From Eutreptiella sp. 'Long Island Sound 2002' (Eukaryota; Protista; Euglenida): a DNA stretch of 64,000 bases. The notes under the pieces were generated by a model. That model saw only the letters and a list, made by a program, of their open reading frames with translations, had not been told where the DNA came from and made no database searches. The stretch lies in assembly GCA_964036045.1 (NCBI GenBank), contig OZ038378.1, positions 161,262,001 through 161,326,000 of the forward strand, in the 5' to 3' direction. Made by a program: the position numbers and the translations under genes. This document shows, piece by piece, positions 19,319 through 49,056 of the stretch. Every line of letters begins with the position of its first letter. The stretch's first letter is position 1.

Positions 19319-19490
19319 AAGCGGGCGAGGAGCAGAGAGGGAGGTGGCGAAGAACGAGACCAGCGGCTGACAAGGAGATGAACGGCGGACGAGGCGGACA
19401 CCGCTATGACGTACGGGGCACCATGGCGCGGACTGGTAGGATCACCGGTGCGCATGACCCCCCCCCCTCCCCTCCGAAAAAAAAAGCAAA
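16731..19490 (+). mobile_element. 5'-truncated non-LTR (LINE-like) retrotransposon: C-terminal ORF2, 3' UTR and A-rich tail
   Basis: One reading frame runs to 19318 with RNase H-like motifs and a C-terminal zinc-finger motif. An A-run (ccgaaaaaaaaagcaaaa) lies at about 19476-19490. No RT core (YADD) is visible, so the element is truncated at the satellite border. Confidence 0.72.
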
Positions 19491-19653
19491 ACACACGGGA
19501 CACCAACACGCAGCGCGCGTGCAACCGGCGAAAACGGGGGGGGGGGGTGATTCAGCACGCCGTGCGCACCGAAGAGAACCGCACGACGCCCCCCCCCCCA
19601 CGCGGAGCCGCCCGACACACCCCGGCCGCCTCCTGTGCATTACAGGCAGCCCA

Positions 19654-22074
19654 TCATGCCCGAGACGCCCAACACCGCCGCCCCCACCGCCCCCACGACC
19701 GCCCCGGCCACGGGGGCGGCGGGCGGCCGCGCCCCGGGGCCGAGTCCCCCCCCCCGGCCCGTGGACGGACAACGAGGAGATTTCCTCGGGGCTGGGGGGG
19801 TGCACGGCGTCGGCCGTGAGCTCGGTGCCGGTGAGCTCCCCGACTGCCGGAGGAAGCGGACAGCTTCATGAACATGCTGAACGCGGAGGCGGAACCGGAC
19901 CTGGTCGCGGGGGCGGGGGAGCCGCGAGTGCGGTCGGCGGAGCCGGCACACGGCGGAGCGGGGGGCGGAGAGGGGGATGGGGCCGGGGGGGGGGGGGTGG
20001 TGGCAGAGGGCCAGAGGGTGGAGGGGGGGCCCAAGGCGCCGCCCAGCCCCCCCGTGCAACAAGGACAGATGAAGTCTGTCCTGGCGCACGTGGGAGCGGG
20101 GACAGGGAAGGGGGGGGGCAAGGGCCGAGGCTGGCAACCACAAACGAAGTTGCAGGCCCACCTGAACCCGAGCCACGTCAAGGTGACGGGTGCTGGAGGC
20201 GCAGGGGGGGGGGCAACGGTGGTAAGTGGGGGACCGCCACACGCAAGGAGCGCCGGAAGGGCTGGCGGGAGCAGGGGCGGAGGGGGTAAGGGGAAAGGCC
20301 GGGAGACAAAAGGGGTGGGGGTGGGGGGGGGGGGGGGCAGCCCCCGTCGCCCCCCAGAATGGCGAAGACACGGGAGGCAATGGAGTTGAGGGAGAGGCTG
20401 CAGCGTCAGTACGTGGCGCTTGAAAACATGCGGCACCACCGGCGGCCCCCGACCCCCCCGCCCGCCCAAATTTTCGAGCTGAGGGCTGCACCTCCGGCAG
20501 GGCCTCCCCCACCCCCGACAATGCCCCCCCCCGCCTCCGAAAGTGCCCCCCCCCGCCCACGGCGTCGCCCCCCCCCGCCGGAGCGGAGGGGGGAGGACGT
20601 GCGGAGCGCCGATGCATCGGCGGTGCCGCCCCCCCCTGAGGCACCGCGACCGAACGAGGGGCACGGCGGGCACGAACCCACAGGGGGTGCGGGCAAGGGG
20701 ATGCAGCACCCAGGGGAGATGGGTAAGGGTAACTGGGGCAAAGGGTGGAGCCAGTGGGGAGGAAAGGGGGGCCAGGAGGGTGGCAGAGGCAAGGGGAAAG
20801 GGGGATGGGGGTGGGCACAACCGCCCCAGGGCGCCCCGGGGAATATGGGAGGGTGGCCGGGTACGGGGGGAAGACCACCCCCCCCCCGCCCCGCCTTATA
20901 CCTATAGCCTCTCGTACACCCCCACGGGTATGCGAGAGGGCGCGCTGGGGAAGGAGATCGAAGGCCTCAGGCGGCAGCTGCGGCAGCAACAAGAGCGGCT
21001 GAGAGACGCGGAGCAGGCGAAGATGGGACTCGAAGAGCGCTTGCGGCAGGCGTCGGGGGCAGTGGCGGCGGAGAGGATGGGTGCGGCGGCCGAGCAGGAG
21101 CGGGGTCGTGCGGCAGTGGAGGCGGAGCGGCGGCTCGGTAGAGAGTGCGCGGCGCGGTGGACGGAGGCGGCGGAGAGGTGGGGTAAGCAAGCAGAGGAAC
21201 GTGCCCTGGAGGCGGCCCAGCTGAAGGGGCGGATGGAGGCAAAGCAGGAGGAAATCGAGCGACTGCGCGGGATGCTGGAGGAGCAGAAGGGGCAGGGGAG
21301 GGGGGGGGCGAGAGGCGGCGGGCTCGAGGACCCCGATCCGGACACGGTCACGGAGGCCGACACGTCGAGCTCGGAGCCAAGCGAAGGGGAGGGGCGAGGG
21401 GGGGGCGGAGGCGATGGTAAGAGGGGAAGGGCCGGAAAGGGGGGCGGGTACGGAGGGGGGGGGGGTCAAGAGAGAGGCCACGGGGGCGGACGACCCCAGG
21501 CCGAGCAAGCGACACAGGCTTGCAACCCCCCCCCCCCAAGCGGAGGTCACGCACTACGAACCCCGCGTCCCAACCGCATGGCTAGCGCCCTTCCCCCCCC
21601 GAAGCCCCGCCGGGCCGCGGCGTGGCACCCCGGTACCAGGGGGTGGGGTACGAGTCAAGATAGAGACGGAAGAGATAGGGGTGGGCACGGAGGAAGAGGA
21701 TCGGTGGGGTGCCAGGGAAAGAGGGCAGTGCGGCAGCGTGGAAAATGGGGTCGACTCGGGGGTGGGGGGACAGTGCCGTAGCAGAGCTGGCCCGATATGT
21801 TCACTGGGCGGGGCGGGCCAAGGGAAAAGACCAACCCATGACCACGACGCTGGGCGAAGTGGTGGAGCGACAAGGGGAGCAACAGGAGGTCCCCAAGCAG
21901 ATGGCGAGAGGCGACTGGGTGGAGCTCCTCCACCAGGTCCTCCCGGAGTTGGACACGGGGGACCGGAGGCAAATGGCGGACAGGAAAGTGGTGGGGCAGA
22001 TGCGGCAGATGCTGGAGGCGGAGGGGAGATACCAGCTGAGACACGACCGGAGGTGTTGGGTGCGGTCCCCCTAG
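19654..22074 (+). pseudogene. Long low-complexity, coiled-coil ORF1/gag-like coding relic, broken into several frames
   Basis: Joinable segments: ATG 19654 (MPETPNTAAP), 19868..20389, 20359..20907 (Pro-rich, GKGKGG), the E/R/A/Q coiled coil at about 20930-21290 (KEIEGLRRQLRQQQERLRDAEQ...), and the final block 21709..22074. Frame breaks fall at poly-G/poly-C runs. Identity as ORF1 is inference. Confidence 0.5.
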
Positions 22075-23949
22075 AGGGCCCGGGGGGAGGACAGGGATAG
22101 GGACAGGGGTGGAGACCACGGCCGGAGCGGCGGACGAAGAAAGGACTGGGATAGGGGCGGGGATATGGGCAGACGCGGGGGTGGGGACTGGGACCCGCGC
22201 GGGGGACACGGGGGGGGAACAGACCGGGTAAGGGGGGAGAGCGGGGGGAGGACGAGGAGCCCAGCCCGGAACGAGGGCAGAAACAGCGGCGCGGGGGGGG
22301 GGGGGGCGGGTACGGGGGCGGGGGTCAGACGGGGCGCAGGGGAGGCGGAGAGCACGGACACGAAAGGCGGGGGGATCAGGAGGGGGACAGGTGGTGGGAC
22401 GGGGGAAGGGACCGGGGGTGGGAAAAGAGGGGGGGCTGGGGACGACATGGGGATGCGCCAAGGGGGGGTGACGGCCGACGCCAAGGCCCACCGATGGCCT
22501 AACCTGGATGGCGGACGTTAGCCCGGCATGAGGTGATGCGTTCGAGGCTAGGGGGGGCGCAGGAGGGGGCAGGGGCGGGGGCGGGGAAGGGCGGGGACCA
22601 GAGAGGGGGGGGGTGGGGGGCGCGCATCAACGGCTGCACCCTCCAAGCACTCCCCCGACCTCCACTGCAGCTCAATTACGCAGGACGGCCTATGCGGCGC
22701 ATTCTACCCCTTGGTTTTTCAGAACAGTACACCAAGACTTCCACATGCACCATGCACAGTGAGCCGAGCAACCCACACCCTCGCACAAGCAAGCCTTGGT
22801 GATGGTCCCGTCCAATCACAGTAGGGGGGGGTATATGCGCATTGACACCCCTGTTACTCTGTCAGCAGTTCAGCACATGGCCAGCAGGCCGTTCTGTGGG
22901 GCCAGAGATAGTCGCGAGGGGGGGGGGGGTTGCGAAGAGACTCAGAGACTAAGAGGCTCCACTGACCTCCACGCCCTGCTTGTGCCAGTGGGGGGCGCGC
23001 GTGTCATGACCACCGCCCAGGGAGCAGCGGAGGGCGGGTAGACATGCGCATGCGTCACACACCGAGCGCTGCTATGGGTCCCTTGGTCCACGAGGCTATG
23101 ACGCACACAGCCCAAACCCACCCCCCTGTCTACTGTCGACGACTTGCGAAGCCACGTCCCCCCCCCAGGGGTATAGGCGCGTGCTCTGCGCCGGGCGCGG
23201 GGACGACGCGGGGGGGATAGTGCGTACAGCGAAACGGAGAATAGCAGAGGAAGCCTGTCCCTATGCTAACCAGTGAGAGCTGACCGTCAGATAACCACAC
23301 TGTCCTCACGAGGCACCCTGGAGGGGCTAACGCATGGGCCAATCCACATCTGCTTGCACTTGGCACCCTGGTGGGGCGTGCGCGAGGCTTACCCGTTCAT
23401 GGTGCACTTGATGTACACACAGATCAGTGGCTGTGAGCCAGGGGCGCCGGGATGGGGCCTGGGCACGGTATGCCATACCGCCCCCTTGTGGTGCCGGACG
23501 CCCATCAGGGCTTAAGTGCGGGGTGCCAGGACCCAAGACCTGATGGACGCAAACAGCCAGTCACAATGAATGCCCAACGGTGCTTCCGGGCACACTGAGT
23601 AACGTTCGGTCCGCTGACAGGCGCCGCAGGAGTGCTGTGATGGCTTTTGATTAACAAGCCCGTGCGTGCTGCATGCCTTACGACAGGTGCGCCCCCCGGA
23701 GGAGAGACGCAAGAACCCCCCCATGTGACTCCCACCCCAGCCACTGTTGCCAAGGGCAGTGGAGAGCAGGGGCCCAGTGCCCGGGTACTGCCCAGAGTGC
23801 ACCCAGGGTCCAGGATCCCGCGGCACGCATACACGGAGACCCGACCTCGGCGGGAGGGGGGGACGGCGACACACGAGTGTGCGTGGCCCAGCACGGTACT
23901 AGCCCCAGCCTTAGTCTGCACGAACGCGCAAAGTCGTCATGGCTTCCGT

Positions 23950-24545
23950 CATCCAAAAAAAAAAGGCAACGGGGGGGGGGGGAGGGGCAGCGAGCCACAG
24001 TCCAGGAGTAGCGAGTCCAGGCCGCACACAACGAGCGATGGGTGGGGGAACCCTGGAAAGGGTTGCAGAGGCGCCCGGATGGGGTACTGCCTCCCACCTG
24101 TCCCTTCCGACACCCCATACGTGTCTGTAGCACGAATGACAGGACCACGCAGCATGGCGGAATGTGAGGCCTCGTGCGGCCTGGGCCGCTGCCCCTGGTG
24201 CGGCCAGGAGGACACCCGGCCCCGAACGTGGGTCATTTGGGGCAGAGTCTGCGCCCACACGGGTGTGTGTGCGGTCAACATCACCTACCTGATGCATCAG
24301 TGGGGGTATCTGTTGGACATGAGCGCGTACCCCGTACGGCCGCACCCGCATCCACGTTCGCCGGCTGGGTATACACACATGCGCACATGTATTCTGTCGC
24401 TCCCCACGGCCACATGCGGGGAACCAGGACACAAAGGGCGGCGCAGCAATCGGTAGCCAGAGGGGACTGGGGCCGGAGGGACAGGAGAAGAGGGGCGGCA
24501 CAAGCCGGTAGGAACACCGGAGTGGGCACGCGGAAAAAAAAACCC
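23950..24545 (+). mobile_element. Probable second LINE-like 3' end fragment
   Basis: A CGLGRCPWCGQEDT cysteine motif is followed by a stop (24456), a purine-rich tract, the CCGGTAGGAACACCGG hairpin (24505-24520) and an A-run (about 24534-24542). Confidence 0.4.
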
Positions 24546-24759
24546 TTAAAACAAGAAGGGGGGGGGGGGGCAGACTGAGGGATAGCAAGAGGCAGGGTAC
24601 CGGAAGCGACGGGGTAGCCGGAGCCGGTAGGAACGCTGGCCCGGACACCCCCCCCCCCCGCGGGAACGGGAGGTGGGTGGGCAGGGTGGGGGTAACGAGT
24701 ATGGTGCCCCCCCGCCCTCCCCCGCAGAGGCGGGGGTGAGAGGGGAACGATGACAGCTT

Positions 24760-25200
24760 GGTGTTGGTGGGCCGCGATCACCTCAGCGGGGTGCCATCGA
24801 TCTCCCTCCTCTGTGGTGGGAAGTCAAAGATCAAGGATACAGAGGGGCGTATGGCCCGGAGGCTGCAGCTTCAAGGAGTCGATGGAGTGGCCACACACTG
24901 CGTGGGATGTGCGGCTTGCAAAGCCTCTACGCGGAGATGGTTGCCGGGCGAAGTCTAGGTTCACAGGCCGAGAGTTCCTCCTGATCCTCAGGACGTGACG
25001 GAGGTTGGGTCCGCTGCGACAAAGGTCATCCGCCAGAGCGTATTCGCCGATCGAGGACGAGAGCGAGGAGCGATCTGCTAACGTAACCTCTGTCGTCTCG
25101 GTGTCGAAGAGCCGGGGTCTCCCCCGCGGGATGACGTCCCACTCCTATACAGCGGGGAACCGCAGCTTACCGTCTCAAGGGGACTACGGACATATGGCTA
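24760..25200 (+). pseudogene. Possible highly decayed retroviral-type integrase fragment
   Basis: Read-through of the 24758 frame gives HCVGCAACKA (C-x2-C) and later VFADRG...NLCRLGVEEPGSPP, loosely resembling the rve SDRG...LC..LGI...SPP region. Similarity is weak. Confidence 0.25.
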
Positions 25201-26999
25201 CCGCCTCGGAAACATGGTGAAATGGCCCCGCAGGGGGTGGAGTGTACGGCGGCAGTGACCCACCGTGGGGAACGGTACCGGATCGCAGGAGCACCTACAC
25301 AACGCATTTACATCATAGGAGTGAGGAGTGACCCTGAGTCACCTCCGGGCTGCTGGCAGGCTGACGACTCCGGCAGGCCACCGTGCTGCAGCCACGTTGC
25401 CGCTGTGTGGCGTTGTCAGCTCAGTGGACACCGCATAATGGGGCTTGCAGGGAAGAAGGTGAAGGACTGACCCTTTTGCGTTCAGCAGCAAGTAACGCCC
25501 GGGTACCGGGGGGCGCAATGTTTTTTTCGTGTGGAGCCCACGAAAGTATAGGAACCAGTTGACGTTGGGAACTGAGCCGGGGAGGGGCTGGTTAACTACC
25601 GGCGGTTGGCGAACAACAGAAGTAGGTGTTCAACGGCCGGCAGGTTCGGTCTTGGGTGAGTACGTGGAGTGAGGCTGGTAACACTGGGACGTCGGGATCC
25701 GGTGAGCCAATGTGGGCGACTGGGGTGTCAGGACCGTGGAGTTGGGAGTCTGAATCCAGAGGCCAAGTTATGTCTCGGGGATCTGGCCCTGCACGTTTCC
25801 CTTACCAATCTGATTGTGGCCCGACGCCAATATTATCTTCCATTTTCCAGCCCGGCAGCACCGGGGCTGCAGACTATTGGGACAGAGGGTTCCGCGGGAG
25901 GGGGGCACGATGTCCTCTCCCGAAGGTCGGAGAAAGTCCAGGGACCCGAGTGGCCGGCGGTTGGGTGGTCTACTGGCGGTGGTCGGCGGTCGACGGTCGG
26001 CAGGCGTTGGTTGGTGGCCAACCGTGGGGAGTCGGTGCGCCAACGGTTGGGGCACAACAATGCAGCCGTAGGCGGAACGAATCGAGGAAAAGCGTTAGGT
26101 CTGCCCCCCCCCCGCCCCCCAGGCAATGCCTCCTGCCCAGATAAGGTACCACTACAGCCCTATAGATCACGACAGGGACCTCAACCTCTGAGAGGTACTC
26201 GGCAGCACTCAGCACAGTGCTGACGATTACAATGCATGCCAAGGGCGTCTGTACATACCTGCCAGGGGAGAGCTTGGGATGGACGGAATGGTGCACCTGG
26301 CCCCGCGAGGAACAGTAGGCCAGGTTGCCACCACCACCATCTACCGGAGAGGGGGCTGGACCGGGAGTGGGCGGGTACGGGGGGCGACACATGCGGGGAC
26401 GGCAGGTCGTCAGCCCTTGGGGCCGCGGCCGAGGAGGGGGGGAGGTGCCAGGGGAGGGAAGCCATAACAGCTGGCAGGGGCGCCTTGCGCACTGCAGCAT
26501 GGGGCGGGCGCCGGAAGGTCAGGAGCCAAGGGGACGGGTAGGGGTTAGTGTAGTGAGGCAGCGGCAAGGGCGAGAGGGTTGGTCAGAGAGAGAGTGGGAG
26601 GCCCGGACTGGCGCGGCACTAGGGTGGAGGGAGACAGCCCCCCGGTGTGGGGCGAATGTACAGCTGGGGTGTGGAACAGTCAGGAGACAGGACACGAGAA
26701 CAGAACGGCCCAATACTATGGAAGCTCGGTGTCGCGTGCATGCAAGGGTGGGGACGGAAGACCGTACAGACACCCGCCCCCCCCCCCCCCCGAGGGCGAG
26801 CAATGGAGAAGTGACGTAAGGGGCAGACGCCCCGCGGCCGGCGCTTGACCCGGTAGGAACACCGGGACACACGACACCAAGAACGAAGGAAAAAGTGAGG
26901 GTCACCGGGGACGAGTGGGACACCCGAGGTATAGACGCTGTGCGCGCGTGGCCGGAGAAGAGAGGTGGCGGCCGTGCCGACGGGGCTGCACACCTGGTC

Positions 27000-27917
27000 G
27001 CCCGTGAGGGGGACCGGGGGGCGGTGACGAGGCGCGGCGCCGGACAGTGGCGAGAGCGGGAGGGAGACGCGTTGCGCGCGGGGGAACAGGGGACGAGGGA
27101 AGCAACCCGTGCACTAGGCACGAAACGGTCCTCCGGGCCCGCGCCGCGGGGTTGCCGGCGGCCCGGCGGGGTACAAACGCGGAGAGGGGCTGAATGGGTG
27201 CGAGGGGCAGTGCATGAGAAAGGGACAGGGCCGAGGGACGAGGGCAGAGTGCACCGGTAGGAACACCGGGGCGTGCGCCAGGTAGAGGGCGGAGGAACAA
27301 GGGGACAGCCGAAGCACGGGGGCCCACACCCCAGGTTGCCCGTGAGGGGAGCCGGGGGAGCGGGTGCCGGACGGGCGAAACCGGAGGTAGGGGACAGGTG
27401 CAGGACGCAGTGCGCACGTGGACCGCACGAGAATCAAGGTGACCGGTACATCGACAATGCAACGCCACATGCCCCGGGGAGCAATCGCCGGGAGAGGGTG
27501 CCCGGGGCTAACCCGGATACACCCTGGCCACGGACCCCAAGCTGAGTCGGGGTAGCCCTGCCCTCGGCGCCCGTGAGGGGGCCGGGAGAGGAGGGTGGCA
27601 GCCGTCGGTCAATGGGCCCACACCTGAGGTCGCCCGTGAGGGGGGCCGAAGGGGTGGGTGCCGAGCCCGATCGCAGACGGTCGCGGGTGGACGATACCCA
27701 AGTGCACCCAGGAGAAACGAGTGGGTACTTCGCCCGTGAGGGGGGAGAGTGGGCCCGGTGGAGGTGGGACTGTTCGCCAGTGCACCGACACAGGGCCCCG
27801 CCCGCAGGTGACCATAAGACCGTCTGCACGGGTGAGGGGTGGGCTGACTAGGCGTCGGCCGGGCCCCGGGGGAACCCAGGATGTCGCCCGTGAGGGGGAC
27901 GGTCGCCCGTGAGGGGG
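27000..27917 (+). repeat. Dispersed cluster of seven GCCCGTGAGGGG motifs
   Basis: Copies start at about 27000, 27338, 27569, 27632, 27732, 27886 and 27905. Confidence 0.85.
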
Positions 27918-28024
27918 ACCCTTGTTCTTGGCGGAACCTACGGCGGAGATGATCCCCCCCACCGTATGGTGGCCGCCAGACAAAAAGGGGTGTGCAGAAG
28001 GCGCCCCACATTCGTGGGCAACGG

Positions 28025-28053
28025 TTGATTGATTGATTGATTGATTGATTGAT
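28025..28053. repeat. (TTGA)7 microsatellite
   Basis: ttgattgattgattgattgattgattgat. Confidence 0.95.
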
Positions 28054-29166
28054 CTCTTGATTGAAAGACGTCTTCAGATGACCAACCAACAGGGGTCCCT
28101 TTGATTCTCACTGGCCCCTTCTTTTTCAAAAACCACTCCCCCTTCACTTTTTTATTGTGCCATCGCAGGCAAGGGATATTGGTGGTTCCGGCAGAAAAGC
28201 AAGACACAAGGGTAGCAATGTGCTGCCTGGCCCATCCCCGTTTCCGCGCGACATGTTTTCGCCCGCGCCTAACCCATACTGCAGACCCCACTGTCCCAAA
28301 ATTACGAAAAAAGCCAGTCTCATCCATGTTATGGATGTATGTGGCTCCGAAATTTGGAAGAATGAGGGCAAGCTTGAGGGAAGTGTTGAAAAAAGAGAGC
28401 ATTTCCTCTGTTGTTAATCTAGCTGTAGCTCGCTGGCTTTCAGCTGAGGCTTTCTCTCTACGAAGTCTTTGTGCCTGTTCTAAAAAAGAGCCCACCCCTT
28501 TTTCCGAAACTTGCAATTCACGAGCGACATAGCATTACAGGGAAGTGCCTTCGCCATCTGTTCCGCATGCTTTTTGATGTGCTTCATCGGCGGAGCCTAA
28601 CTGGCATCTGCCTGGCTATCCATCCACCGGATTAACTCCTCTCCGTTCAACAGTGGTTTCAGTCCTCGCTTGAGCCGCATGGGGTTGGCCCTTGCTCTAC
28701 ATTGCGGTAGGGCAGGGAGGGAGGGAGCGAGACAGTGTAGGTGTTCACTCGCTGCCTTAGCTTATTAATGAATAGGGCGACGTGTCGCGCAGCAGTTACG
28801 GACACGTCGCGTGACACCTTCATGGCCGCAAGCAATTTTAAGAGCAAGGGCAGTAGTGTCGCGTACACTTGTATCTCTCCAAGGCACCGGTGACACTGTC
28901 GCGATGAACTCCAAGTGCTTTGGCGGCGCTTCGCACACTACGTCTCTTTGCCAGGGCCTCGGCGGCTGTCATCTCGAACTCAGTCCTGTTCTTTTGCTTC
29001 AAATGCATTGGCACAGCTTCTGGCGCGACCCAAAAATGCGCTACCGCCGCGCGACCTGTTCTGGCACTGTTTTCACAAAAAAATATCAAATTTACAATAT
29101 AAACCGGTAAACCAAATTAAAGATCGATATTTTACCTAACTGCATGCCGCTATTCCGTTTACAGTA
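28054..29166 (-). mobile_element. pogo/Tigger-like (DDE_1 family) DNA transposon relic, 3'-truncated
   Basis: N-terminal HTH RSVRSAAKALGVHRDSV (28838..29089), a CENP-B-like segment (28659..28868) and the DDE start YIHNMDETGF...ATLVSCFSAG...GW (27938..28516). The coding sequence stops at the (TTGA)n tract. A possible terminal end ...ccgtttacag|ta lies at about 29155-29166. Confidence 0.8.
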
Positions 29167-29180
29167 GTAATTGCTACAAT

Positions 29181-29453
29181 TGTAGTGGTTGTTGTCTGGA
29201 TCTTCGAAAACCTCTTGCTCTGCTAGTTTCTTGAAAATCAACAACCTCGACACGGGGGATCTTTAAGTGGGGCAGCAAGCCGTGTCAATTCAAAACTCCA
29301 AGAAAAACCCTGTGATAAACATATGAACACATGTCGAATATTTATCACAATCATTGATCACTATTTCAATATCGATCATCATTAGCGCATGCACGCGTGT
29401 TCGATCTTTTGCCAGATCTCGCGACGCGCGCTCGCACTAATCGAACCATAACA
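29181..29453 (-). repeat. 3' LTR
   Basis: tgtagtggttg...ccataaca; 8 differences from the 39136-39408 copy; preceded by caat. Confidence 0.96.
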
Positions 29454-29466
29454 CTACCCCCCCCCT
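29454..29466 (-). other. Polypurine tract (PPT)
   Basis: Minus strand reads AGGGGGGGGGTAG immediately before the 3' LTR. Confidence 0.85.
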
Positions 29467-29815
29467 GAGACCTCGAAGAGTTCTCACCCAACTGGGCTGG
29501 GTGGGCGGAACAAGCCTGCTGAAAGTGCAGAGCTCAAAAAGGTCCCATGGTTCGAAAAAAACTGTGACCCGTGATCGTTGACTGTGGGGAGGCTCCAATG
29601 CGCCTGAGGCATAGTAAGGGTCGGGGCCCCCCTTGGTAGTGTCCTGTCAATTAGTCGAAAGCAGGACCAGATAGTCACTCGACATAAACAAAAATAGATA
29701 GAACCAACAATCAAAAAAAATTGTAACTCTCGGGCCACACATGCACAGCATCCCTCGCAGCCAGAAGCAGCGGTGGACACTGTGGCACAAAGCAAGGTGC
29801 AGCCGTACCAATTGC

Positions 29816-32691
29816 CTAGACGCTCGTGGAGAAGAACAGCAAGAAATTTTGTCTTCCCCAAAAACACAATAACCAAATTACAAAATCTCGATCAACAAAC
29901 GATCGATGAAATCCCTCATTCAGCCGAATAAGGTAGACGTCGATGAAACTCCTTCGCACATTGTCCCAATCGAAGGTATAATTCTTCTGGGTAATCAACC
30001 TCGAGTATTCGGGGTTGCGTGCATCGATTCCTTGACAGCGTCGAAAGGCATCGAATCCTGCATGACAGGGGTAGTCACATCCAGGAGCTGCGGGGTCGAG
30101 CATAACCGCACATCGAGCAGCGATGGGCCGAAGCTCAGGATTCCCTGCAGGAAAGTCGCCCTCATTCCTCGGGAAATATTCGAAGATGTAAAGATCTTCT
30201 CGAGCAAGTGGTCGACCTTCCTTCGGAGCTCGACGTTGGAAGAAATCGTGGAGATTTTCATTCTTCCAGGAACATCGATAGAAATCCTCTCGATGAGTGC
30301 CAAAACTTTGGCGGAAACGTACTTCGCCCTGACCGAAGTCGATCTGCGACCACGCCCGGTCTTGTCGAAGGTTGTTCGCTGTGGGCGGCAGGAAGTAAAT
30401 TCTTCATCGAGCATCCGCAATCCACCACTGAGTATCGGCACAAGTGAACCGTCGAACAGTGACAATGGCAGTGAACCTGTTCCTGAAGGTTCAAAATCGA
30501 ACATGGATTTCGAACTGCCGGGTGTACTAGCTGTCTGCCAAGCGCCCAAGGTATTCGTGAACAAAATTACCCTTGCCAAGTCGAAGTTGAATGGTCTGGG
30601 CAATGCAATGTATGTCCTCGAAGGGCACTGGGGTATCGAGGACCACTGGCCTGAGGCTGAATTCTTTTGCTCGAGCAACCCCTTTCTTGTGGTCTTCGAT
30701 GAATCGGTCGATCAGGTCTCGGCCCAAGTAATGCAACTCCGGCACACCGTGATTGTGCTGGCACAGATTCGAGTTGAGGGGCAGCAGCCGAAGCTCAAGA
30801 GGCTCGGGGTGCATAGGGTCCTTCGATGGCTAGTACGGCGTCGGCGGGGGCGTCGGACCCACATCCTGTCGAAACGCAACGTTCCGGGTGAGTTTGTATC
30901 CGTCGCCATCAGTGGCCGCTTCGACGTTCGCGAAGGGATATTTCGACATGCTCATCCCATTTCCGACTCCATATTCGAGGATGAGTTCATCGGCGTTCTC
31001 GAATGGAAAGTACTTGTGGATGAGTTTCTCGTCCCCAGATGAACGGACAACCATCGAATGCTTGTCAATGTCGAACATGCTGATGCGTTGAATGACATTG
31101 TAAACTCGGCGTAGGTCGATCAATGGTCGACCGTGAGGACGGTGAGTGCGGGACATCGAACGTCCAATGTCGCCTCGAGATTTGCCGGCCTCAGAGTACT
31201 CGATCATTTGCAATGCGAGCTCGGCAGGGCTTACCGGCGCTCCTTCGAAGCGCTTGTAGGCTAATCGGACGGAGTTGATGTCGTAGGACTGTCGAACAAG
31301 AAGACTTCCGAGGTAACCGATCCAATCGGAGTTGTCATCGAAAGTCCATCGTTTTCGATTGCAAACATCTCGGTGGTTGCGGATTAAGCCATCGATAAGA
31401 ATGGCCGGAACCAGATTCTTGGGTTCTCGAGGAGAGTAGTGCCTTCGGATGTTGAAGCAGTGTTCGAGTGCGTCGTAGGTCGACAAAAGCTTGGTGACGC
31501 CTTCACGCTCTCGAAACATCCGTTCATGCCACTTGGCATCCGCGTCGACAGAGTCTCCGGTGAGCGCATTCATTCGAGTCCTCCATGCCTCATTAAGTTT
31601 GCGAAGCCAAGCTTCTGCGTGTGTGCGACAGTCTCGGAGGTCATCTTCGATGTCTGTGTACCATCCCGGACTCGGGGTCAGGCCAAGATTGCCAAGTTCG
31701 TCCATCGACGTCTGGTGTGCGTAGATCATTGCCTCGGAGAGGTCCGTTTGGCTTAAAGCATCGAGAGAATGAGGCATCAGATCATACAATCGTCGATGAG
31801 TTTGAAGCAGGGCGTCGATGACCTGTTCGTGTCCTGTCAGACACGCCACATGTTCGGGCACTGACGAACATTGTCGTCGAAAAACGTGGGGTGGCAGCTT
31901 CGAATACTGAATAGCCAATCGATCATCCGTCGCAGTGACGTATTGGTAGGGTGGTCGACTCATCTGCTCTCGCAGCATCAATTGATCGACCGTCTCGAGT
32001 TGACGGATGGGTTGCAAAGTGTAGGGATCCCACGGAGCTCTATCATCTTGTTCTCGAGCACGTTTGGATCCTCGATGACAGACGGGAGACTGGTCCCACT
32101 GTACATGCTCTCTCTGAGGCATCGGTGGCGCACTCGAAATGCCGGTTCGAGGTCGAGGAACATAAGGTCGAACGGGGGCACTGGCCACACTGCGATCGAA
32201 GTCATAGTTGCTGCCTTGGGGGACCGCCTGGCGACTTGTGCTGCGCTGGTGGCCTTGACTTGTGCTGCGCGGTTGACCTCGACTCTCTCGACCAGATTCT
32301 GACCGGGATTGTTGGTCTGGTTGATCGTTGTACGTGTACCTGGGAGCTCGGCTTCGATCCTCTGGAAACGGTCCGTAGTCGATGGGGCTCGGCGGGCTTG
32401 GGGCTCGACTGCGCTGCGAAGGCGGTCGGGCACCACCCGTGGTAGAAGGCGGGGCATGCGATGATGTTGGTCGGGTCGATGCCAGGTCTGGTACCTGGGC
32501 GATTCCCCGGGTTGATGATCATCGTTGAATCGTCGGGGGGCGTCTCCTCGAAATCGAGCTGCTTCTCAGCGATCCACACCGCGATCATCCCGAGACCAAC
32601 CGTCATCGAAGTGATCATCATAGCCGGTGTAGGTTGAGTAGTCATCATGGTGTGAGGCGCCTGTGGAACTGGAAGTCCCTCTGGCGGACAT
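29816..32691 (-). pseudogene. Accessory ORF3 of the chromovirus, about 950 codons, unknown function (disrupted)
   Basis: ATG at 32691 (MSARGTSSSTGASHHDDY) lies 40 bp after the pol stop. It runs into ORF 31978..32457, then after a frameshift into 30830..32188 (452 aa open), reads through a TAG into 30527..30814, and then into 29995..30678 and 29816..30103. Joins between frames are inferred. Confidence 0.65.
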
Positions 32692-32731
32692 AGCGGGTCG
32701 AAAGCTACATTCCTAAAAGGAAATGAAGCAG

Positions 32732-35700
32732 TCACTCGGGATTGAGCTGAAGGTACTCGACGAAGACAGGGTCCTCATATGAACTCTGGCTCGATTCCCA
32801 AGACCATGTGCCATCATCCCATTCGCATCGATAGAGCCAGCTCCCACGTCTCTTAGCACCCACCTGTCGTCTAGCAGAGATTCGAACTAGATTCGGGGAG
32901 GGGCCAGTCTTGGCAGGCGGCATAGGGAACTCGAAGACGAGTTGTCAATGTCGATGCAAGTATGGGTGAACACTGTGTCGATTGAAAACTGGGTGGCGAT
33001 CGACGGGAGGTGGAATATCGAGCCGAACATTCTCCCCATTGTTGAAGACTTCGAGAACTTTGTAGGGGCCACACCAAACCACGTCCAATTTGCCTTTGTT
33101 TTGATACTCGGGAACCAGGACCCACCAGAGCTCGCCTTGTAATGGGACTCGAACTTGTTTGTCTAATTGCATGACTACATGCATTTGTTGTCTCCGTTCC
33201 TCGAGGAGCACGGCACGCACAGAGTCAAAGACACGTTCAGCTCGAGTCAGGTAAGCATCAATGGTGCAAGGTTCACTGGAAGTAGAGTTCACTCTAGGGA
33301 AGTCCAGCGGAAAGTGTGGAGTTCTCCCCTCATCAATCTCGAAGGGGGAAAGCTGTAGCTTGTCGGAAGTGAGATTGTTGAACTGGATCTCAGCAAACAA
33401 CAGGTAGAGATCCCACTCATTGTCGCCGAAGATGCCGTGTGTCCGCAATCGCTGCAAAATCGACTGATTGGCGCGTTCAGCAAGACCGTTTCCTCGTGGC
33501 CTGTTGGCTACTGTTTGGTTCATCTCGATCTTGAAACCCTCTGCCACAGTGTTCCAGGATTGCGACTCGAACAGCTTATCTCGGTCGGAGACAACTTGTC
33601 GTGGGCATCCCTTGAGTCGAATCACTTCTCTCGTGAAGGTGTAGATGAGATCGTCCGCAGTCATGTCTTTCCGACAGGGGATGAACGTTCCTCGTTTGGA
33701 GAATCGATCCACTACAGTCATGATCGCATCGTGGCCTCTCGTAGTGGGTGGCAATCCTGTCATCCAGTCGACAGACACGCTGTGCCATTTTGCACCATGA
33801 ATTGGTATAGGTCGTGGTACTCTTGCTGTCCAAGTATTGCGAGTCTTGGCAGCCTGACAGACGTCGCAACTCAGGATGTACCGCTCGACGTAATGTCGAA
33901 GGTGTGAACAAACGTAATCTCTTTTGATGAGTGCCATAGTCCTCAGAATTCCGGAATGGCCGTAGAACTCTGATTCATGATACATCGAGACTATGGTGTT
34001 GACCAGGGTTCGAGGTACTAGAATTATCTTGCCCACTGAGGAATGATGTCTCGGTTTTCCTTTTTCGAAGGACAGATAAGCACAACGGAGTTGGTGTCGT
34101 GCATGTGGGCTTCGAATTGCAATCTCAAATAATTGACAAGTTCGGGGGTCTTCTCGATGGGCAGCAGACCATACTGAACTCTGGGTCAAGTCTCTGAGTT
34201 GATAATGTCGAAGGAGTCGTTGACGGGAACCCTTGATACTCGACGGATACGCTGTATTGGGTCCGGCCTTTGGCAATGGCACTGGAGGTAAATGGCCTTC
34301 TCGAGTGCGTCGATAGCGTACGAGGTCACCAGGGGAAGGGGCAACTCGAGGTTCTTCCCTGGTGAAGAACACACGCAGTACTTTCGATGGCTCATCAGCT
34401 CCAGGGTTAACGGGCTCCCCACTTCGTTCCCAGCCTCTTCAACGTTGTTGTCGACGCCTGCGTCATCGGTGTTGCCTGCGTCATCGACGTTGCTGGCATC
34501 GGTGTTGCCCGCGTCATCGACGTTGCTGGCTTCATCGAAGTCGCTAGCCTCGCCGGCGTTGCTGGCTCCAGTGTCGGTACTGCCCGGAACCACTGGTGCA
34601 CTCGCGTCAGTACCATCCACCCCAATTTCTTCGATCTCGTGGGGTTCATCGTCGGACTAAGTCATGTCGACAACCTGTGAATGGATTGTTCGCCCGCTTC
34701 GAAGTGATACATAGAGGTGATCGTAGGGATGTGGCCATAATTCATCGTGTGAATAGTGAAACTCGAGTCGATGCAAGAAATCATCGTCTGGTTCACGATC
34801 GGGTGAAACCCAATTCTGGACAAGAGGCATAACCATTGGTTTGTGCTTGGCCGTATTCTCGATCGCCATGAGTTGTCGAGAAGTAAGTCTCGAGCATGCG
34901 CCAGCCGCTGGGTTAGCCACCCCGGGTAGGTACCAAATGGACAGGTTATACTCCTCGAGAAATTGTGACCATCTGGCCTGTCGAGGAGTCAGCGGCCGGG
35001 GGCATGTCTGGAGATATCGGAGGCTCTCGTGGTCCATATGGACATGGACCTGTTGAGGTCCTCGAAGCAAATGAAACCACTGCTTCAGTGCCGAGACGAT
35101 TGCCAACAATTCTTGCTCTCCAATGGGGTATCGTGTTTTCCCGCCGGTTGCATCTTTCGGGACAGAAAGGCTACTGGTCGCAAGTGGCCTTTGTACTTTC
35201 CTCGATTACACTGTTGTGCCAATGTGGCACCTATGCAGTCTTTCGAGGCATCGGTGTACAGATGGTACGGGCGGTTTGGGACGATGGCGCTGAGGTGCGC
35301 AGCAGCTAGCATGGCATTCTTCAAAGTGTCGAACGCCATCTGGTGTATAGCACTCCACTCCCATTCGAAGTCGTTTTTCAACATCGCGGTTAGTTGAGGC
35401 TGCGATGGAGTGGAACCCTTCGATGAATTGCTGATAGAATGCGCAAAGGCCAATGAATTGTCGAACCTCGTGGACTGTAGTCGGCGGTGGCCAAGCTCGG
35501 ATCACCTTCATCTTGTCGGGGTCCATGTGCACTCCATCCGTGTCGATGATGTACCCGCAAAACGGAACCCTCTGCTGAAAGAACGTAGACTTGTCGATGC
35601 AGGGATAGAGCTGATGTTCTTCGAGGAGGTCGTGCACAATGTCCAGGTGTCGTTGATGCTTTTCCTGGTTTTTGGAAAAATCAGGATGTCCTCGATGTAC

Positions 35701-37127
35701 ACACAAACAAAGGTAGTCTAGGTAGTCTCGAAGCACATCATTTACCACGTGTTGAAATGTCGAAGGAGCATTGCATAGACCGAAGGGCATGACCACCCAT
35801 TCGAAGGCGCCAAACTGGATGTCGAAGGCAGTCGTCTCGACGTCATCCTCGTGGATTCTGATTTGATGAAATCCGGACACAAGGTCGATTTTGGAAAAAA
35901 TGGTCGACTCACCCAACGTACTCAAGATGGATGGTATAGAAGGCAGCGGGTAGCGATCCCGCACCGTTCGAGTATTCAAAGCTCGATACTCCACACACAT
36001 ACGCCGCTTTCCGTTGGCCTTTTTGACAAGGAGGCAACCCGCGCCATACGGGTTGGAAGAGGGTAGAATGCGTCCGCACCGGTGTAATTTGTTGAGTTGT
36101 CGTCGTAACTCCTCAAGCTGAGCAGGATCCATTTTGTAAGGATGCACCCATGGTGGGTTGTCATCAGTCTCAAGACGAATTCGGTGGTCTCGCTGGGGTC
36201 GATGCGGTGGTAACTGACCTATTGCAGCACGTTCTCGATCATATAGGTGTGACCACTTGTGCATAGAGGACGGCAGTCGTGATTGCACCTTATCGCCTTG
36301 GAGTCGTCTTTCGGCATAGCATGGAGGTGTTCAACGGGATTCGAAGTATCTCTGGGCATGCAACACAGGTAGACCTGGTCTCCAGTCAAGTCAGCTCGGC
36401 GAATCTCTCGCCTGAGCTTGGGTATCGAAATGTACTCTATTTCGACATCACTGATCTCTTCATCTGCGAAGCCAGGCGATTCGCAGCCCTCATCATCTGT
36501 TGCTCGGGATGGCGATTTTGCTCGAGGTGATGATCGGCTTGGGTCCCGGTGTTCCTTGGCATGTGGCACTGGGTCGCCAAACGGAACTGCTTTCGAGGGA
36601 CTGGATGAAAGTGTTGAAAGAAGATCCAACTTCGGAGTCGGACGAAACTGTAGTTGAGTAGATCCCCTGGAACCGTCGAAAGACAATCAATAGGAAGTTG
36701 ATGCTTGACGTACATCAGCATGGAGTTCCACCCAATTAACAACTGGATTGTAACTCCGAAGCCATGGCAATCCAAGCACCACATCCGGTAGGATTTCGAG
36801 AACCTTGAAATGGTGTCGAAATACAACATTCCCTATCCTGACATAGGCTCGGGCGTAATACCGCACTTCGACTTGGACTCCTCCGGCGGCGAGGACGTGT
36901 CCAGGTCGGGTTGGTTTATAGAGGGGAAGGCGCGCGCTCTGAGCTGTCTTCATCGACATAAAATCGCTTGTCGCTCCACTGTCGAGCAACACCTGTACTC
37001 CCATGGAATCTTCGAGGCCCTCTCGATGCGCTGAGAGGCGCCCCGCGACCGTGAACAGAATCGCGTGTTCAGGGTCATCGACACTTTCTAAAGTCACATT
37101 TTCTTCGGGTTTGGCGGCAGTGTTCAA
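32732..37127 (-). pseudogene. pol: pol polyprotein: aspartic protease, RT, RNase H, integrase, chromodomain
   Basis: PR VLLDSGATSDF; RT RYPLP...FSKIDLVSGFHQIRI...VMPFGLCNAPSTFQ; RH LYTDASKD...VAFLSRKM, MDHESLRYL; IN GHSG...CDVCQ, VSVDWMTGLP, VVDRFSK, SDRD, ERANQ; chromodomain YRCEWDDGTWSWE (32732..32923). Confidence 0.95.
34460..34530 (-). repeat. 33-bp coding tandem repeat (ASNVDDAGNTD x2) in an acidic RH-IN linker
   Basis: gcgtcatcgacgttgctggc occurs at 34478 and 34511. Confidence 0.8.
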
Positions 37128-37199
37128 CTCTTCTCCAGAACTCCTGCCAATTCTTCGAACTCTCCTTTTAGGCCGTTGAGGACGGCCCTATTGATTGGC

Positions 37200-38987
37200 C
37201 ACCACTCCGCGACCGAAACCGTCCCTTCTTGTCTCGGCTCAAATTACGTCCCCTTTGAGGAGTCCCTGATCGTGATCCACGGGAATCTCTCCAATCTCTC
37301 GAATTTCTCCTTGAAGATGCTCGATTCTTAGGGCAATCCCTAGCAAAGTGCCCAGGTGCGCCAAAATTGTAGCATCTTCGAGTATTACTACGATTCTCGA
37401 AACAGCATCCTCGATCCCTGGATCTCGATCTCCTGAATGGATGTAGGCATGCAGCTCTTCTCGAAGTTTTGCGATAGCATCGAGGTTCATTGGCTCCGGA
37501 CTCGTGGATGGCGCAAGTGGCGGTGCCGTTGCCATACTGGGTGGAGGCATAGGCGTGGTAGAAGTAGGGGGAACTGCCATTGGCAAAGGCCTCGAAACTG
37601 CAACTCCAGTTGAGTCTCCAGGAGACTTCGATGCATTCTGCACTTCTTCGAGCTGATATCCCGCAGCGATATACGCTTCCGCGATGGTTTCAACCAGAGC
37701 AACGAACCCGAAAGGCTTTCCAGATCGCCATCCGGATCGAACTTCAACAATGGACTGTCTGTGAATGGCGTCATTGGATAACCCTTCAACAAACCTCGAA
37801 TTGACCAAGTAACCCATCTGCAGATCATCAACATTGACTTTCGACTTGATGACACACACTCAAAATTCCCGAACATAATCCGCATGTCGTGGAAAATCGC
37901 ATTCCTTCAAGGTCAACATTCTCGAAAGGTAGACGGGCTCATTGGAAATACTGTCGAAACGCTGCGCCAATACCTTGGTCAACTCGTTCCAGTCACTCCG
38001 CACAGTCGAAGTCAAACTGTGATAATAGTCGACGGCGTCTGACTGGAGCATAAAGGGCATAGCCGTCGCCTTCTCGAAGGCACTGGAGATGTCTGAGAGG
38101 ACAAGTGCCATCGAGAACTCCTGCTCCCAAATACGAAACTCTCCTTCACCAGGTTTCCCAGAGAAGGGTCGAACCAGCTTCGTCGAACGTTCGACTTTGC
38201 GTCCCAAACTCTCTTCGGAAACAGTTTGGGTGAAGGTCGGTTGTGGAAAGAAACCTGGTTGATTCGAAGGACGTTGCTGTGGCTGAGGATGTTGTGGAGG
38301 ATGTTGCGGAAGGTGTTGTGGAGACGGCGGTGGTCCATTCGAATTCCAAGGTTGTGGAGAAGGCGGTGGTCCACTCGTATTCCAACTGGATCCTCGAACA
38401 AAGTGATGTACAAACATGAGGGTTTTTTGTAGCTCCTCTTAGATTTTGCTGACGGTCGAGTTGAAGAGTGCCTTGTGAGGTTCGAGTGCTTGTTCAAAAC
38501 CCATGCGACTGTTTGAAGCTACGTGTGCATCGGCCGTAGCAGCCACCGAGGCTCGTGTAGCGTTCTCTGTCGCCACCGTCAGGGTGTCGAAATTCCTTTG
38601 GAGCCCACTAAAATTGTGTTCGAGACCATTGCAGTCAGCTGCAATCTGACTCTGTGCCTTCTACACGTTGTCGTTCAATTACTCAAACCTCTTTCCTAGA
38701 TCAAGGTAACCAGTTTGAAGAGCTTCATTGTTTGAAAGCCAATCCATCCATTGCTCGTCAAATTTATCAAGTCGTTGCCTGTTCTCTTCATTTGCACTCG
38801 TGAGCCTGTTAAGGTCATGAGACATCGACGCAAACCACTATGTCTCTCGATTCGTTATTCGAGTAGTTATGAGTTGATGCAACGAATTGGTAAACTCTTG
38901 ATGCAACGGAGATTCAGGTCGAAACAAGCAGTTGCGCACAAAAACCAACATAAGCTGTTCGTCGAAAGCATTGCCGATGTTATCCAT
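37200..38987 (-). pseudogene. gag: gag (coiled-coil N-terminus, capsid-like domain, degenerate zinc knuckle)
   Basis: ATG 38987 is in frame with ORFs 37860..38417 and 37239..37859, with five in-frame stops. PFSGKPGE..F..W is a gypsy gag motif. The knuckle CYNFGAPGHFARDC (37333-37374, shifted frame) is CX2CX4HX4C with the second C changed to F. Confidence 0.85.
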
Positions 38988-39115
38988 CAGGTCTTGGAAA
39001 TTGTATCGAACTCAGATTGAATTCAAGTTGGGGTTGAAATCAACGAAATCTTGAACACGAAAATCTCGACGCGACGCGTAGATCGAGTTCAAAATGTGAA
39101 ATGCTGCTCCCCCAA

Positions 39116-39133
39116 CACCCAAGCTGCTTACCA
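39116..39133 (-). other. Putative primer-binding site
   Basis: TGGTAAGCAGCTTGGGTG begins 2 nt downstream of the 5' LTR on the minus strand; TGG is complementary to tRNA CCA. Confidence 0.7.
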
Positions 39134-39135
39134 AG

Positions 39136-39408
39136 TGTAGTGGTTGTTGTCTGGATCTTCGAAAACCTCTTGCTCTGCTAGTTTCTTGAAAATCAACAAC
39201 CTCGACACGCAGGATCTTTAAGTGGGGCAGCAAATTGTGTCAATTCAAAACTCCAAGAAAAACCCTGTGATAAACATATGAACACATGTCGAATATTTAT
39301 CACAATCATTGATCACTATTTCAATATCGATCATCATTAGCGCGTGCACGCGTGCTCGATCTTTTGCCAGATCTCGCGACGCGCGCTAGCACTAATCGAA
39401 CCATAACA
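39136..39408 (-). repeat. 5' LTR
   Basis: 273-bp match to 29181-29453; followed by caat. Confidence 0.96.
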
Positions 39409-41153
39409 CAATGTGTACAATCGCGGCAAGATTGGTAAGGAAACTGGGGATTTTACCTTAATAGACTGCCCACAGGTGGGCTAGTCCTCCGGACGATAAC
39501 ACATACACGGGTCGGCCTATAGAATGCACAGCAGTTGGGGTTGAAAAAAGATATACGATGGGCTACACCATCCACCGGGTCTCAACCACCTGTGGCACCC
39601 GGCACTGGACGGTAAGGAATGCTGTCAATTGGCACTGGGGCAAAAAATAGAACCGAAAAAGTAGACACATCAAGGTGCTCTGCATGCACAGTATGTGGCA
39701 CAACACCACCAACTGCCTTATGTGGGCCTCTTGGTACGTCAACAACTCTTATAAGTGGCCGGGAACCAGTCTCTCACACTACAGCTGCTCGTGCCAAATC
39801 CAGAAAGGCCACGCTCAAACCCGACGCAGAGGGGTATAGGACGGAGAACCGGAGAATTAGAGGCGCAAACACGGTCACCAACTAGGACCGGCAAAAGCGT
39901 ACGGGGCCCGGCGGTACTCCTCGGTATCACATCCCCATAGCGTAGTTACATAAGCTGGGACACCCCCAAAGGTCATGCCTGGCACAGCCACGTTTGAGCA
40001 TTTGCAGATGGCAGTGAGCAGTCGGTGCGGGCGATCCTTATTCCTCATAAGGTGAAAGCTGCCAGAAAAAAGAAGACGGCAGTGAGGAGTCAGTGGCAAC
40101 GATAGTTATTCCTCAACTTGTGGAATCTGCACAGTACTCGACCATTTTTCCACGACCGGCGTGTTTCGTGTGTTCTCCATTTGCCATTTAGCTCCTTAAA
40201 CAGCGCAATGATGGTGTAATCCGAAGCCTTTTGTACACGAATGTCGGAATCGGATGGTAGTAGCACATGTAGCATATCCTTATCAAAACCATGTCGTTCA
40301 TTTTCATTAAACTTTTTCGCCGCAAGATATGCAACAACAAACAATGTTTCAAAGTAAATGGAGTACGACAACACCCACACTGCCCATTGCACTGGAAAAA
40401 CTACGAAGTCGTGAGCAGAGGCAAAAGAGCGTCATAAGAGGTAATGTTGCCATAGTTCAGCAAGTCGCCAGGTGTCCAAATGTAGGCCCAAGTGAGGTGT
40501 ACATCTACGCTCGGGGTGGACGAGTTTGCTACTCTTGTGACCTAACCTCCGGCCATGGTCTATTGCAATCTTGCAGTGATTAGTGATGGTTGATCCATCT
40601 TCCCAAGGTATCTAATCGCACTAAGGTAAGGCGCCCAATTAAAGCTCAAGGTACCAAATGTTCCCGAGAGCAAGAAAAATTCAAAAAGATGTAGTGTAGT
40701 TGCTCCGCGAAGAATATGCATTTACGAATCTGATGAGTGAAAACTTTCCAGAAATATTCAGAATGAGCTATTACGCAACTGTAGCCTAGGGTGAGGAATA
40801 GATATGAATATTGCTACGCTAGGGTGCCCAAAATAACATTGTCTGCTCATCGCTTATTCAATGCATATGGGAAGCAAAGCAGTGTGCGCATTTTCATACT
40901 GGTGTATGCAATACTGCAGTGCAATAACAACGCTGCAAGTTTTGCCCTGATCCTCACTACATGCCGTAAAAATGACTGGTGGTGTTTCTCTTGGAGAGAT
41001 TCCACTGTACAAATTTCGGCCTATGGACCCATGTTTGTGGTGCTCAATGTTCTTCCGACATGTACACATTGTGCATAACACTTTGGAATTTCTTTTAACA
41101 CACGAAAGGACCTGAAAAACGTTCAACAAACAAGACAACAACACGATACGGAC

Positions 41154-46831: not shown

Positions 46832-47475
46832 CCATGCCAGCGTAGCGTTTTGTTTGGGGAATGCTGTAGGAGTTTTGCCATGATGCGTTCAAGTTGACGG
46901 GTGCCGGAGAAGATGAATTGATCTGGCGTTCTTCCCAGTTTCTTCGCTGCTGTGTAGTGTAGTGCCATGGCCCAGGTTGCGCCATAGTCGCTGAGGGGTC
47001 CGGTGTACCACTTGTGGTTGATCTTCTGGTCCCAAAAGGTGACTCTCCTTGCCAGCCCATTGATGTGTCGTAGCTTGAGGGTCGCTGCTGCCGAGATTCG
47101 AAGGCCCATAATCGTCGACAATACTGCTGCTGCGACCACACACCATTCCATCGGTGTGTTGGCCGCCTCTGTCATCTCCGCGAGTGCCGCAAAAGATCCC
47201 CACTCCGGGGGGGCGCGTGTTTGTCTTTTTGCTGCTGCCTTTGGTAATTTGCCCATGCCTGTCGGGATGGGTTTGTCCAGGTACCCCAACGTCCCAGCCC
47301 AGGCCGCTGCTGATAGGATGGTGCGCACAACACTCGGTGATGACCCATTTTGTAGTTCTGCTGTGACTTGGGCATCCCAGGCTTGCGTCGTTGTCCAGTG
47401 TGGTCTCGCCCAGTGTACCTGGTACAATTTTCTGAGGCCAGTGCGGTACGTTCGCAGCGTACTAAGCTCCCACAT
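46582..47475 (-). CDS. Tyrosine recombinase (YR), intact 297-aa ORF
   Basis: Catalytic set GLRIS (R), WDQK (K), HGWRR (HxxR), CRWRS (W) and ARQY (Y). Confidence 0.92.
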   Translation of the reverse strand: MWELSTLRTYRTGLRKLYQVHWARPHWTTTQAWDAQVTAELQNGSSPSVVRTILSAAAWAGTLGYLDKPIPTGMGKLPKAAAKRQTRAPPEWGSFAALAEMTEAANTPMEWCVVAAAVLSTIMGLRISAAATLKLRHINGLARRVTFWDQKINHKWYTGPLSDYGATWAMALHYTAAKKLGRTPDQFIFSGTRQLERIMAKLLQHSPNKTLRWHGWRRLCAVTLAAAGSSTQKIKGWCRWRSTSTARQYMDCPQAERISKNPWVPLPPNPTKKAPVSRAAKRSTGDLATDRNHQQMR

Positions 47476-47547
47476 CCATGCTTTAGTGTCCCACAGGTAT
47501 TTCTCAATTCCCCTTTCTCTGCGTTGGATGATTCCTTGGATTCCAAA

Positions 47548-48918: not shown

Positions 48919-48943
48919 TTTAATGCACAGGGGGGGGGTAGCA

Positions 48944-49056
48944 GTGCCCTCAATCCCCAAATCTAAAAAGATTCTAAGATGAAGATAGGAATCATATTTA
49001 TATCAGATTCAGAGTGCATTGGGGGAAATGCTTGCATTCCCTACGGGAATGCTGGT
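48944..49056 (-). repeat. Split direct repeat A1 (5' terminus)
   Basis: gtgccctcaat...gggaatgctggt matches 44171-44283. Confidence 0.92.

Follow-up and report, generated by a model that had tools for sequence, protein, structure and literature searches.

Background

Many retrotransposons carry extra open reading frames (ORFs) downstream of pol, and most of these lack an explanation (PMC6317226, PMC7264820, PMC11963269). Among plant Ty3/gypsy elements, extra ORFs of at least 250 codons have been reported in 3372 elements, falling into 314 groups, and only 21.4% of the encoded proteins match a known domain (PMC6317226). Rotifer elements with an ORF3 cargo have also been described (PMC5408684). 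In C. elegans the CERV protein, made from a spliced mRNA, exports Cer1 RNA (PMC10309623), and the VANC proteins bind motifs that have accumulated in their own VANDAL element (PMC5735166). The Euglena genome has been described as heavily 5mC-methylated, and Euglena LTR elements as carriers of epigenetic cargo, including DAM, DNMT and chromodomains (bioRxiv 10.64898/2026.05.21.726589).

Here we analyse a third ORF (ORF3) in a 64,000-nucleotide stretch of DNA (the window) from the euglenid Eutreptiella sp. 'Long Island Sound 2002' (GCA_964036045.1, contig OZ038378.1, positions 161,262,001 to 161,326,000 of the forward strand). An earlier note on this sequence had put ORF3 forward as a candidate for a novel system. 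The view of ORF3 as a categorically new system is not supported; extra ORFs after pol are already a known kind in the plant survey (PMC6317226). The eORF-3'F and aORF-3S classes are like ORF3 in position, orientation, length (>250 codons) and lack of a known domain, and the extra ORF of barley Bagy2 is possibly spliced, as is predicted for ORF3 (PMC6317226, PMC7264820). The extra ORFs described in those texts come mostly from plant non-chromovirus lineages and SIRE (PMC6317226, PMC7264820), whereas ORF3 has about 958 codons and no transmembrane segment, and belongs to a euglenid element with a chromodomain-like end; it has no Pfam match to any described extra-ORF domain.

The other systems resemble ORF3 in part. 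CERV of Cer1 and ORF3 would both be non-env accessory proteins of LTR elements, splicing and export being only predicted for ORF3. VANC and ORF3 are alike in pairing an element-encoded accessory gene with a short motif that abounds in the element but is scarce elsewhere (PMC5735166). The VANC motifs are 8-9 nt long, non-coding and built by tandem repeats (PMC5735166), whereas the motif in our element, TCGA, is a 4-nt palindrome spread across retroelement coding DNA, and its binding by ORF3 is hypothetical. The Euglena DAM-LTR and EpiLTR elements are gypsy-type, carry a chromodomain and extra cargo, and likely come from the same host group, but neither ORF3 nor the spacer between RNase H and integrase in our element matches DAM or DNMT. 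TCGA has 0 occurrences in the text of the EpiLTR preprint (bioRxiv 10.64898/2026.05.21.726589). We found no account of the ORF3 family or of a TCGA bias in the literature searched, which consisted of main texts and included few subscription papers. The ORF3 protein family appears to be undescribed. With it, the known accessory genes of LTR retrotransposons gain a conserved family of about 700 residues that has no counterpart in the libraries searched, from a host group that has received little study.

Architecture of the element

ORF3 lies in a decayed Ty3/gypsy LTR retrotransposon of about 10.2 kb, which occupies positions 29181-39408 of the window on the minus strand. Its parts, in the sense of transcription, are as follows.

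39136..39408, minus strand: 5' LTR, 273 bp, TG...CA, located by self-comparison and motif search
39122..39135, minus strand: stretch resembling a primer-binding site (PBS), which also contains a splice-donor-like site, G/GTAAGC, at 39131
37210..38987, minus strand: gag, decayed, with a zinc knuckle (Pfam)
32732..37190, minus strand: pol, decayed, with protease, reverse transcriptase (RT), RNase H, acidic spacer, integrase and SH3_Tf2-1 (Pfam)
32732..32899, minus strand: candidate chromodomain-like C-terminal end of pol (last 55 codons; motif found by eye)
29816..32691, minus strand: ORF3, about 958 codons, with five internal stops and one frameshift in this copy
29457..29466, minus strand: G-rich polypurine tract, preceding the 3' LTR
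29181..29453, minus strand: 3' LTR, 273 bp

The order of the Pfam domains (gag, protease, RT, RNase H, integrase) is that of Ty3/gypsy, and so is the structure, with a TG...CA LTR pair, a target duplication (4 bp on either side of the element) and a polypurine tract. The two LTRs differ at eight positions. The gag assignment combines a weak Retrotrans_gag match (E 0.088) with a zf-CCHC match (E 1.7e-5). The last 55 codons of pol look like a chromodomain by eye, and the element is a putative chromovirus; this end has no chromodomain match in Pfam (E<=10) or in a PDB sequence search, and a part of it, 32789-32824, is common to many related copies. RNase H and integrase are separated by a spacer of about 290 codons (34030-34900, minus strand), which comprises an acidic tandem repeat (34456-34552) and a part that contains Cys and His, and which belongs to no Pfam family.

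Comparison over positions 29400-39500 distinguished two alleles of the insertion in runs X1-X4, of which X1 and X4 represent one sample. In the same runs, parts of pol and the polypurine tract region have many diverged relatives, whose depths add up to thousands, compared with about 60.

Reading frame of ORF3 and its decay

ORF3 begins at an ATG at 32691, 40 nt past the pol stop (32734-32732), and ends at a stop at 29818-29816, a span of 2876 nt. It lies in the sense of gag-pol, on the minus strand, and in start and orientation agrees with its first description. The copy in the window is interrupted by stops at 32568, 30832, 30529, 30493 and 30406 and by a frameshift near 32.5 kb. The frame can be traced to 29816, as the note had claimed in speaking of in-frame read-through, but the ATG is out of frame with the core in this copy. 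The core of 452 amino acids that had been singled out is indeed uninterrupted; the open stretch is really 562 codons long (30830-32518), and the shorter version merely begins at a GTG. Among 2000 Markov mimics of the region, an open frame of at least 562 codons arose by chance in two, and a best frame with four stops or fewer in six.

A second allele of ORF3, present among the contigs from runs X3 and X4, has neither the frameshift nor one of the stops; the ATG and the ORF3 body are therefore one gene. The stop load of ORF3 (5 in 958 codons) can be compared with that of gag (5 within its first 506 codons), which indicates that ORF3 is no more decayed than gag; it was thus likely coding at insertion and then decayed along with the rest of the element. 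As in the eORF-3'F class of Neumann et al., the frame exceeds 250 codons (562 open), lies downstream of pol in forward orientation and is not a tandem repeat, just one 53-bp tandem repeat occurring inside it. An antisense open frame of 389 codons (29873-31042, plus strand) overlaps ORF3; it has no Pfam match and is probably a shadow of the coding bias.

A candidate splice acceptor

32713..32731, minus strand: candidate cis- or trans-splice acceptor of ORF3, a pyrimidine tract followed by AG, between the pol stop and the ATG

This site, with 15 pyrimidines out of 17, has the top score of the 219 YAG sites in the sense strand of the element (next best, 13). An ATG-stop pair lies directly behind it, which speaks against its use for ORF3. 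Only three of the 219 lie within 60 nt of the ORF3 ATG. Also on the negative side, acceptor-like sites of the same score number 13 of 1106 in flanking DNA, and one occurs antisense. The donor-like site just past the 5' LTR is one of four GTRAG sites in the element. Together, the top-scoring acceptor and the donor-like site suggest a spliced or trans-spliced subgenomic mRNA, and from these signals we lean towards the view that ORF3 would be made from a spliced or spliced-leader trans-spliced message through the acceptor at 32713.

Homologues and selection

An exhaustive protein search of 1.84 billion representatives gave 19 matches, three of them the window's own pieces and 16 non-self, and profile searches extended the non-self set to 125 unnamed fragments. 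All 110 non-self rows of one profile search lie on ENA contigs of 0.09-7.8 Mb. Of the fragments, 122 align to ORF3 at about 30% identity and together give continuous coverage of residues 159-852 of the read-through (694 residues). One fragment, P0085, is 525 amino acids long and stop-free, and crosses four of the stops of the window copy. The homologues start with a similar low-complexity arm, rich in D, S, N and Y, and end near residue 852, so that the last 48 codons of the window copy may fall outside the conserved protein. A word-based search with a size range of 423-1348 residues returned only the window's own protein. A profile search with the C-terminal half gave a single non-self match; it missed known members and was therefore insensitive.

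Of the 65 aligned homologues, 39 span one block, in which they are 27-35% identical to ORF3 and 46-91% identical to one another. The homologues lie on many large contigs and form a star-like tree. Such a tree at such identities would be a pattern as in a transposon burst; the homologues presumably sit in LTR elements. ORF3 shares 161 positions with at least 80% of the homologues that cover them, among which are 8 of its 11 W, 10 of its 27 Y and 11 of its 27 G residues. When neutral decay to 32% identity was simulated, 15.6 stops accumulated per 432 codons, 20% of W residues were kept and none of 300 runs stayed stop-free. From these comparisons we infer, at the protein level, that ORF3 evolved under purifying selection; the protein level was used because no copies of ORF3 at 80% nucleotide identity or more occur in the runs examined, in which it is single-copy. 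These runs also contain many pol-related copies without an ORF3 of that identity, so that ORF3 may be dispensable or fast-evolving.

Family searches and predicted structure

32045..32691, minus strand: low-complexity N-terminal arm of ORF3, about 215 codons, probably disordered (from composition)
29963..32044, minus strand: conserved body of ORF3, 694 residues, tiled by homologous fragments
31424..31876, minus strand: predicted antiparallel helical bundle (block pLDDT 52-95), the sole confident part of the model

The N-terminus had been described as rich in S, R, P and D, which its composition bears out, large hydrophobic residues making up 7-9% of it against 25% in the core. The charge of the conserved body is near neutral (-3). 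No domain had been recognised in ORF3 by eye, nor did family searches recognise one: Pfam gave no significant match in ORF3 and none in any of 53 homologues, NCBIfam and Rfam gave nothing significant for ORF3, and the best PHROGs value (E 0.021, in a homologue) was not significant. A search of PDB sequences with ORF3 yielded at best E 0.049, to designed barrels, which is not significant, and a PDB profile search yielded no match at E<=10. The Atlas search gave no significant match, a blank that signifies neither absence nor novelty.

AlphaFold models of ORF3 have mean pLDDT values of 45.5 and 36.5. About 150 residues are confidently predicted to be helical, so that the description of the core as helical-looking holds for that part; the remainder is predicted as mixed alpha/beta at low confidence, with alpha/beta domains in the C-terminal half of both models. 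The matches of the bundle in VIA are generic, spectrin- or syntaxin-like; the best has Z 10.6 (rmsd 3.0, 120 residues aligned), below the VIA guide of about 13 for bundles, and the C-terminal domains are barely covered by VIA. Foldseek returned nothing at E<=0.001 against PDB and viral structures with these low-confidence models, in which there was likewise no nucleic-acid-binding fold and no significant match to a fusogen fold. With models this poor, neither a new nor a known fold is demonstrated for ORF3.

The TCGA bias

The ratio of observed to expected TCGA is 5.5 in the element and 0.44 in its flanks (one element, about 19 kb of flank). Within the element it reaches 7.3 in ORF3, 4.9 in pol and 5.1 in gag, and is 0.22-0.60 in three flanking stretches; ORF3 is therefore like gag-pol in composition, as had been noticed at first sight. 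This bias, shared with gag-pol, and the conservation of ORF3 in its homologues both fit the original view of ORF3 as long resident. TCGA is the most over-represented tetramer in the element, whereas the other 15 NCGN words have ratios of 0.45-1.43 and are mostly depleted. Each kilobase inside the element contains 13-30 copies of it, the kilobases at the element's edges contain 9-15, and those in the rest of the window 0-5.

The window contains a further retroelement, DIRS-like, at 44984-49002 on the minus strand, with overlapping RT and tyrosine recombinase frames. The TCGA bias is absent from it. Junctions of the form [FIV][DE] are encoded with TCGA in 24 of 26 cases in ORF3 and in 3 of 20 in the DIRS-like ORFs. 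Synonymous codon use in ORF3 correlates with that in gag-pol at 0.66, compared with 0.11-0.16 for the DIRS-like ORFs; one antisense frame correlates at 0.61, so that part of the correlation comes from the TCGA bias. We discarded a dipeptide-based proxy for TCGA because the DIRS-like control gave the same score (1.35). The out-of-frame tails of homologues imply TCGA use in 28 of 34 cases; other TCG words are used in 14 of 23, which is not significantly lower (p 0.12, the tails being non-independent), so that the tails are only suggestive.

The bias extends over gag and pol as well and could be unrelated to ORF3, to which no result connects it. We consider it unlikely that TCGA is the site that the ORF3 protein reads. 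Equally doubtful is the fuller proposal, in which ORF3 would be a sequence-specific reader or modifier of TCGA with a new fold, and TCGA, spread by the element through its genes at about 21 per kb, would let the protein mark every family copy for escape from host methylation. If true, this would be a VANC-like self-recognition system in a retrotransposon. Two matters become testable through the acceptor beside the ATG and the TCGA bias, namely the splicing mode of ORF3 (cis or spliced-leader trans) and the co-variation of TCGA density, methylation and ORF3 presence across families. If these three co-vary, the element would be a retrotransposon whose self-recognition depends on a motif within its own coding sequence.

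Possible roles of ORF3

ORF3 is, in our view, very probably a genuine accessory gene of the element. The whole of what we propose, that it is a selected third gene with a spliced message, whose soluble protein acts intracellularly on its own nucleic acid and keeps the element expressed, has about an even chance of being correct. A spliced or trans-spliced subgenomic mRNA formed through the acceptor at 32713 would give rise to the ORF3 protein, which would be soluble and consist of a disordered arm followed by the helical bundle and then by the modelled alpha/beta domains. The protein would act on the DNA or RNA of the element, against host silencing or nuclear retention, and could possibly recognise the dense TCGA marks. 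An element with gag-pol between a donor and an acceptor, as predicted here, must export unspliced RNA, as CERV does for Cer1. That ORF3 would aid the expression or export of its own element, and its escape from silencing or nuclear retention, is a reading drawn by analogy with CERV, VANC and the Euglena LTR elements and from the anatomy of the element; we hold it tentatively, at slightly less than even chances.

The strongest of the alternatives considered, though rather unlikely, is that ORF3 acts as a structural helper or one associated with particles, for instance by scaffolding virus-like particles or their transport, and has no connection to TCGA or silencing. The combination of a disordered arm with a predicted spectrin- or syntaxin-like bundle, the position of env and the large size of the protein are consistent with it, and sense extra ORFs have been suggested to act as chaperones (PMC7264820). 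However, the matches of the bundle are generic at the Z value given above, and no result ties ORF3 to gag or to particles.

It is unlikely that ORF3 is divergent enzyme cargo beyond the resolution of the present models, such as a nuclease or a modifier of DNA or RNA, with its target marked by the TCGA bias. In the predicted alpha/beta C-terminal half, conserved residues (D, H, W, Y and R) would suit an enzyme, and DAM and DNMT are carried by other LTR elements (bioRxiv 10.64898/2026.05.21.726589). Against this, the methyltransferase motifs [DNS]PP[YF], FxGxG and ENV are absent from all five proteins checked, and neither ORF3 nor the 53 homologues nor the RNase H-integrase spacer has a DAM or DNMT match in Pfam; the blanks in Pfam for all 53 homologues and in the PDB profile search (0 at E<=10) point the same way. 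The word RPPY/KPPY does not qualify as an adenine-methyltransferase motif, since its first residue is wrong and FxGxG is missing.

An alternative to our preferred reading of ORF3 as a gene of the element itself is that it is a passenger from another repeat family or a host gene, captured by or nested in the element. Its single-copy state at 80% nucleotide identity or more, which contrasts with the many relatives of the polypurine tract and of parts of pol, could be explained in this way. However, no terminal repeats or duplication bounding ORF3 were found, it adjoins pol at 40 nt with its own candidate acceptor, and its TCGA bias is as strong as that of gag-pol and is missing from the flanks and the DIRS-like element. 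We therefore regard a passenger origin as very improbable.

Hydropathy agrees with the first description of ORF3 as lacking a transmembrane anchor and as no typical env. The highest 19-residue hydropathy (KD19) is 1.36 in ORF3 and does not exceed 1.62 in any of ten proteins (ORF3 and nine homologues), the start in the ATG frame is polar, and at most three N-x-S/T sites occur in the five proteins checked. Three homologue starts reach 12-residue values (KD12) of 0.93-1.72, a statement about hydropathy only. An atypical env, for which the position of env and an env-like splice arrangement might speak, is extremely improbable in view of the missing anchor in all ten proteins, the polar N-terminus, the few N-x-S/T sites and the lack of a hydrophobic tail at the ends of the homologues.

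Other parts of the window

Positions 1-16730 of the window contain about 335 copies of a 50-bp satellite that has a 10-bp substructure; one block of it, near 9.7-12.8 kb, stands in inverted orientation. Positions 17000-28100 form a repetitive stretch rich in G+C (61-72%), which the tails of two ORF3 homologue fragments weakly match. At 58371-58650, on the minus strand, there is a truncated piece of YjeF_N (NAD(P)HX epimerase-like), which seems to have no introns and is possibly a retrocopy.
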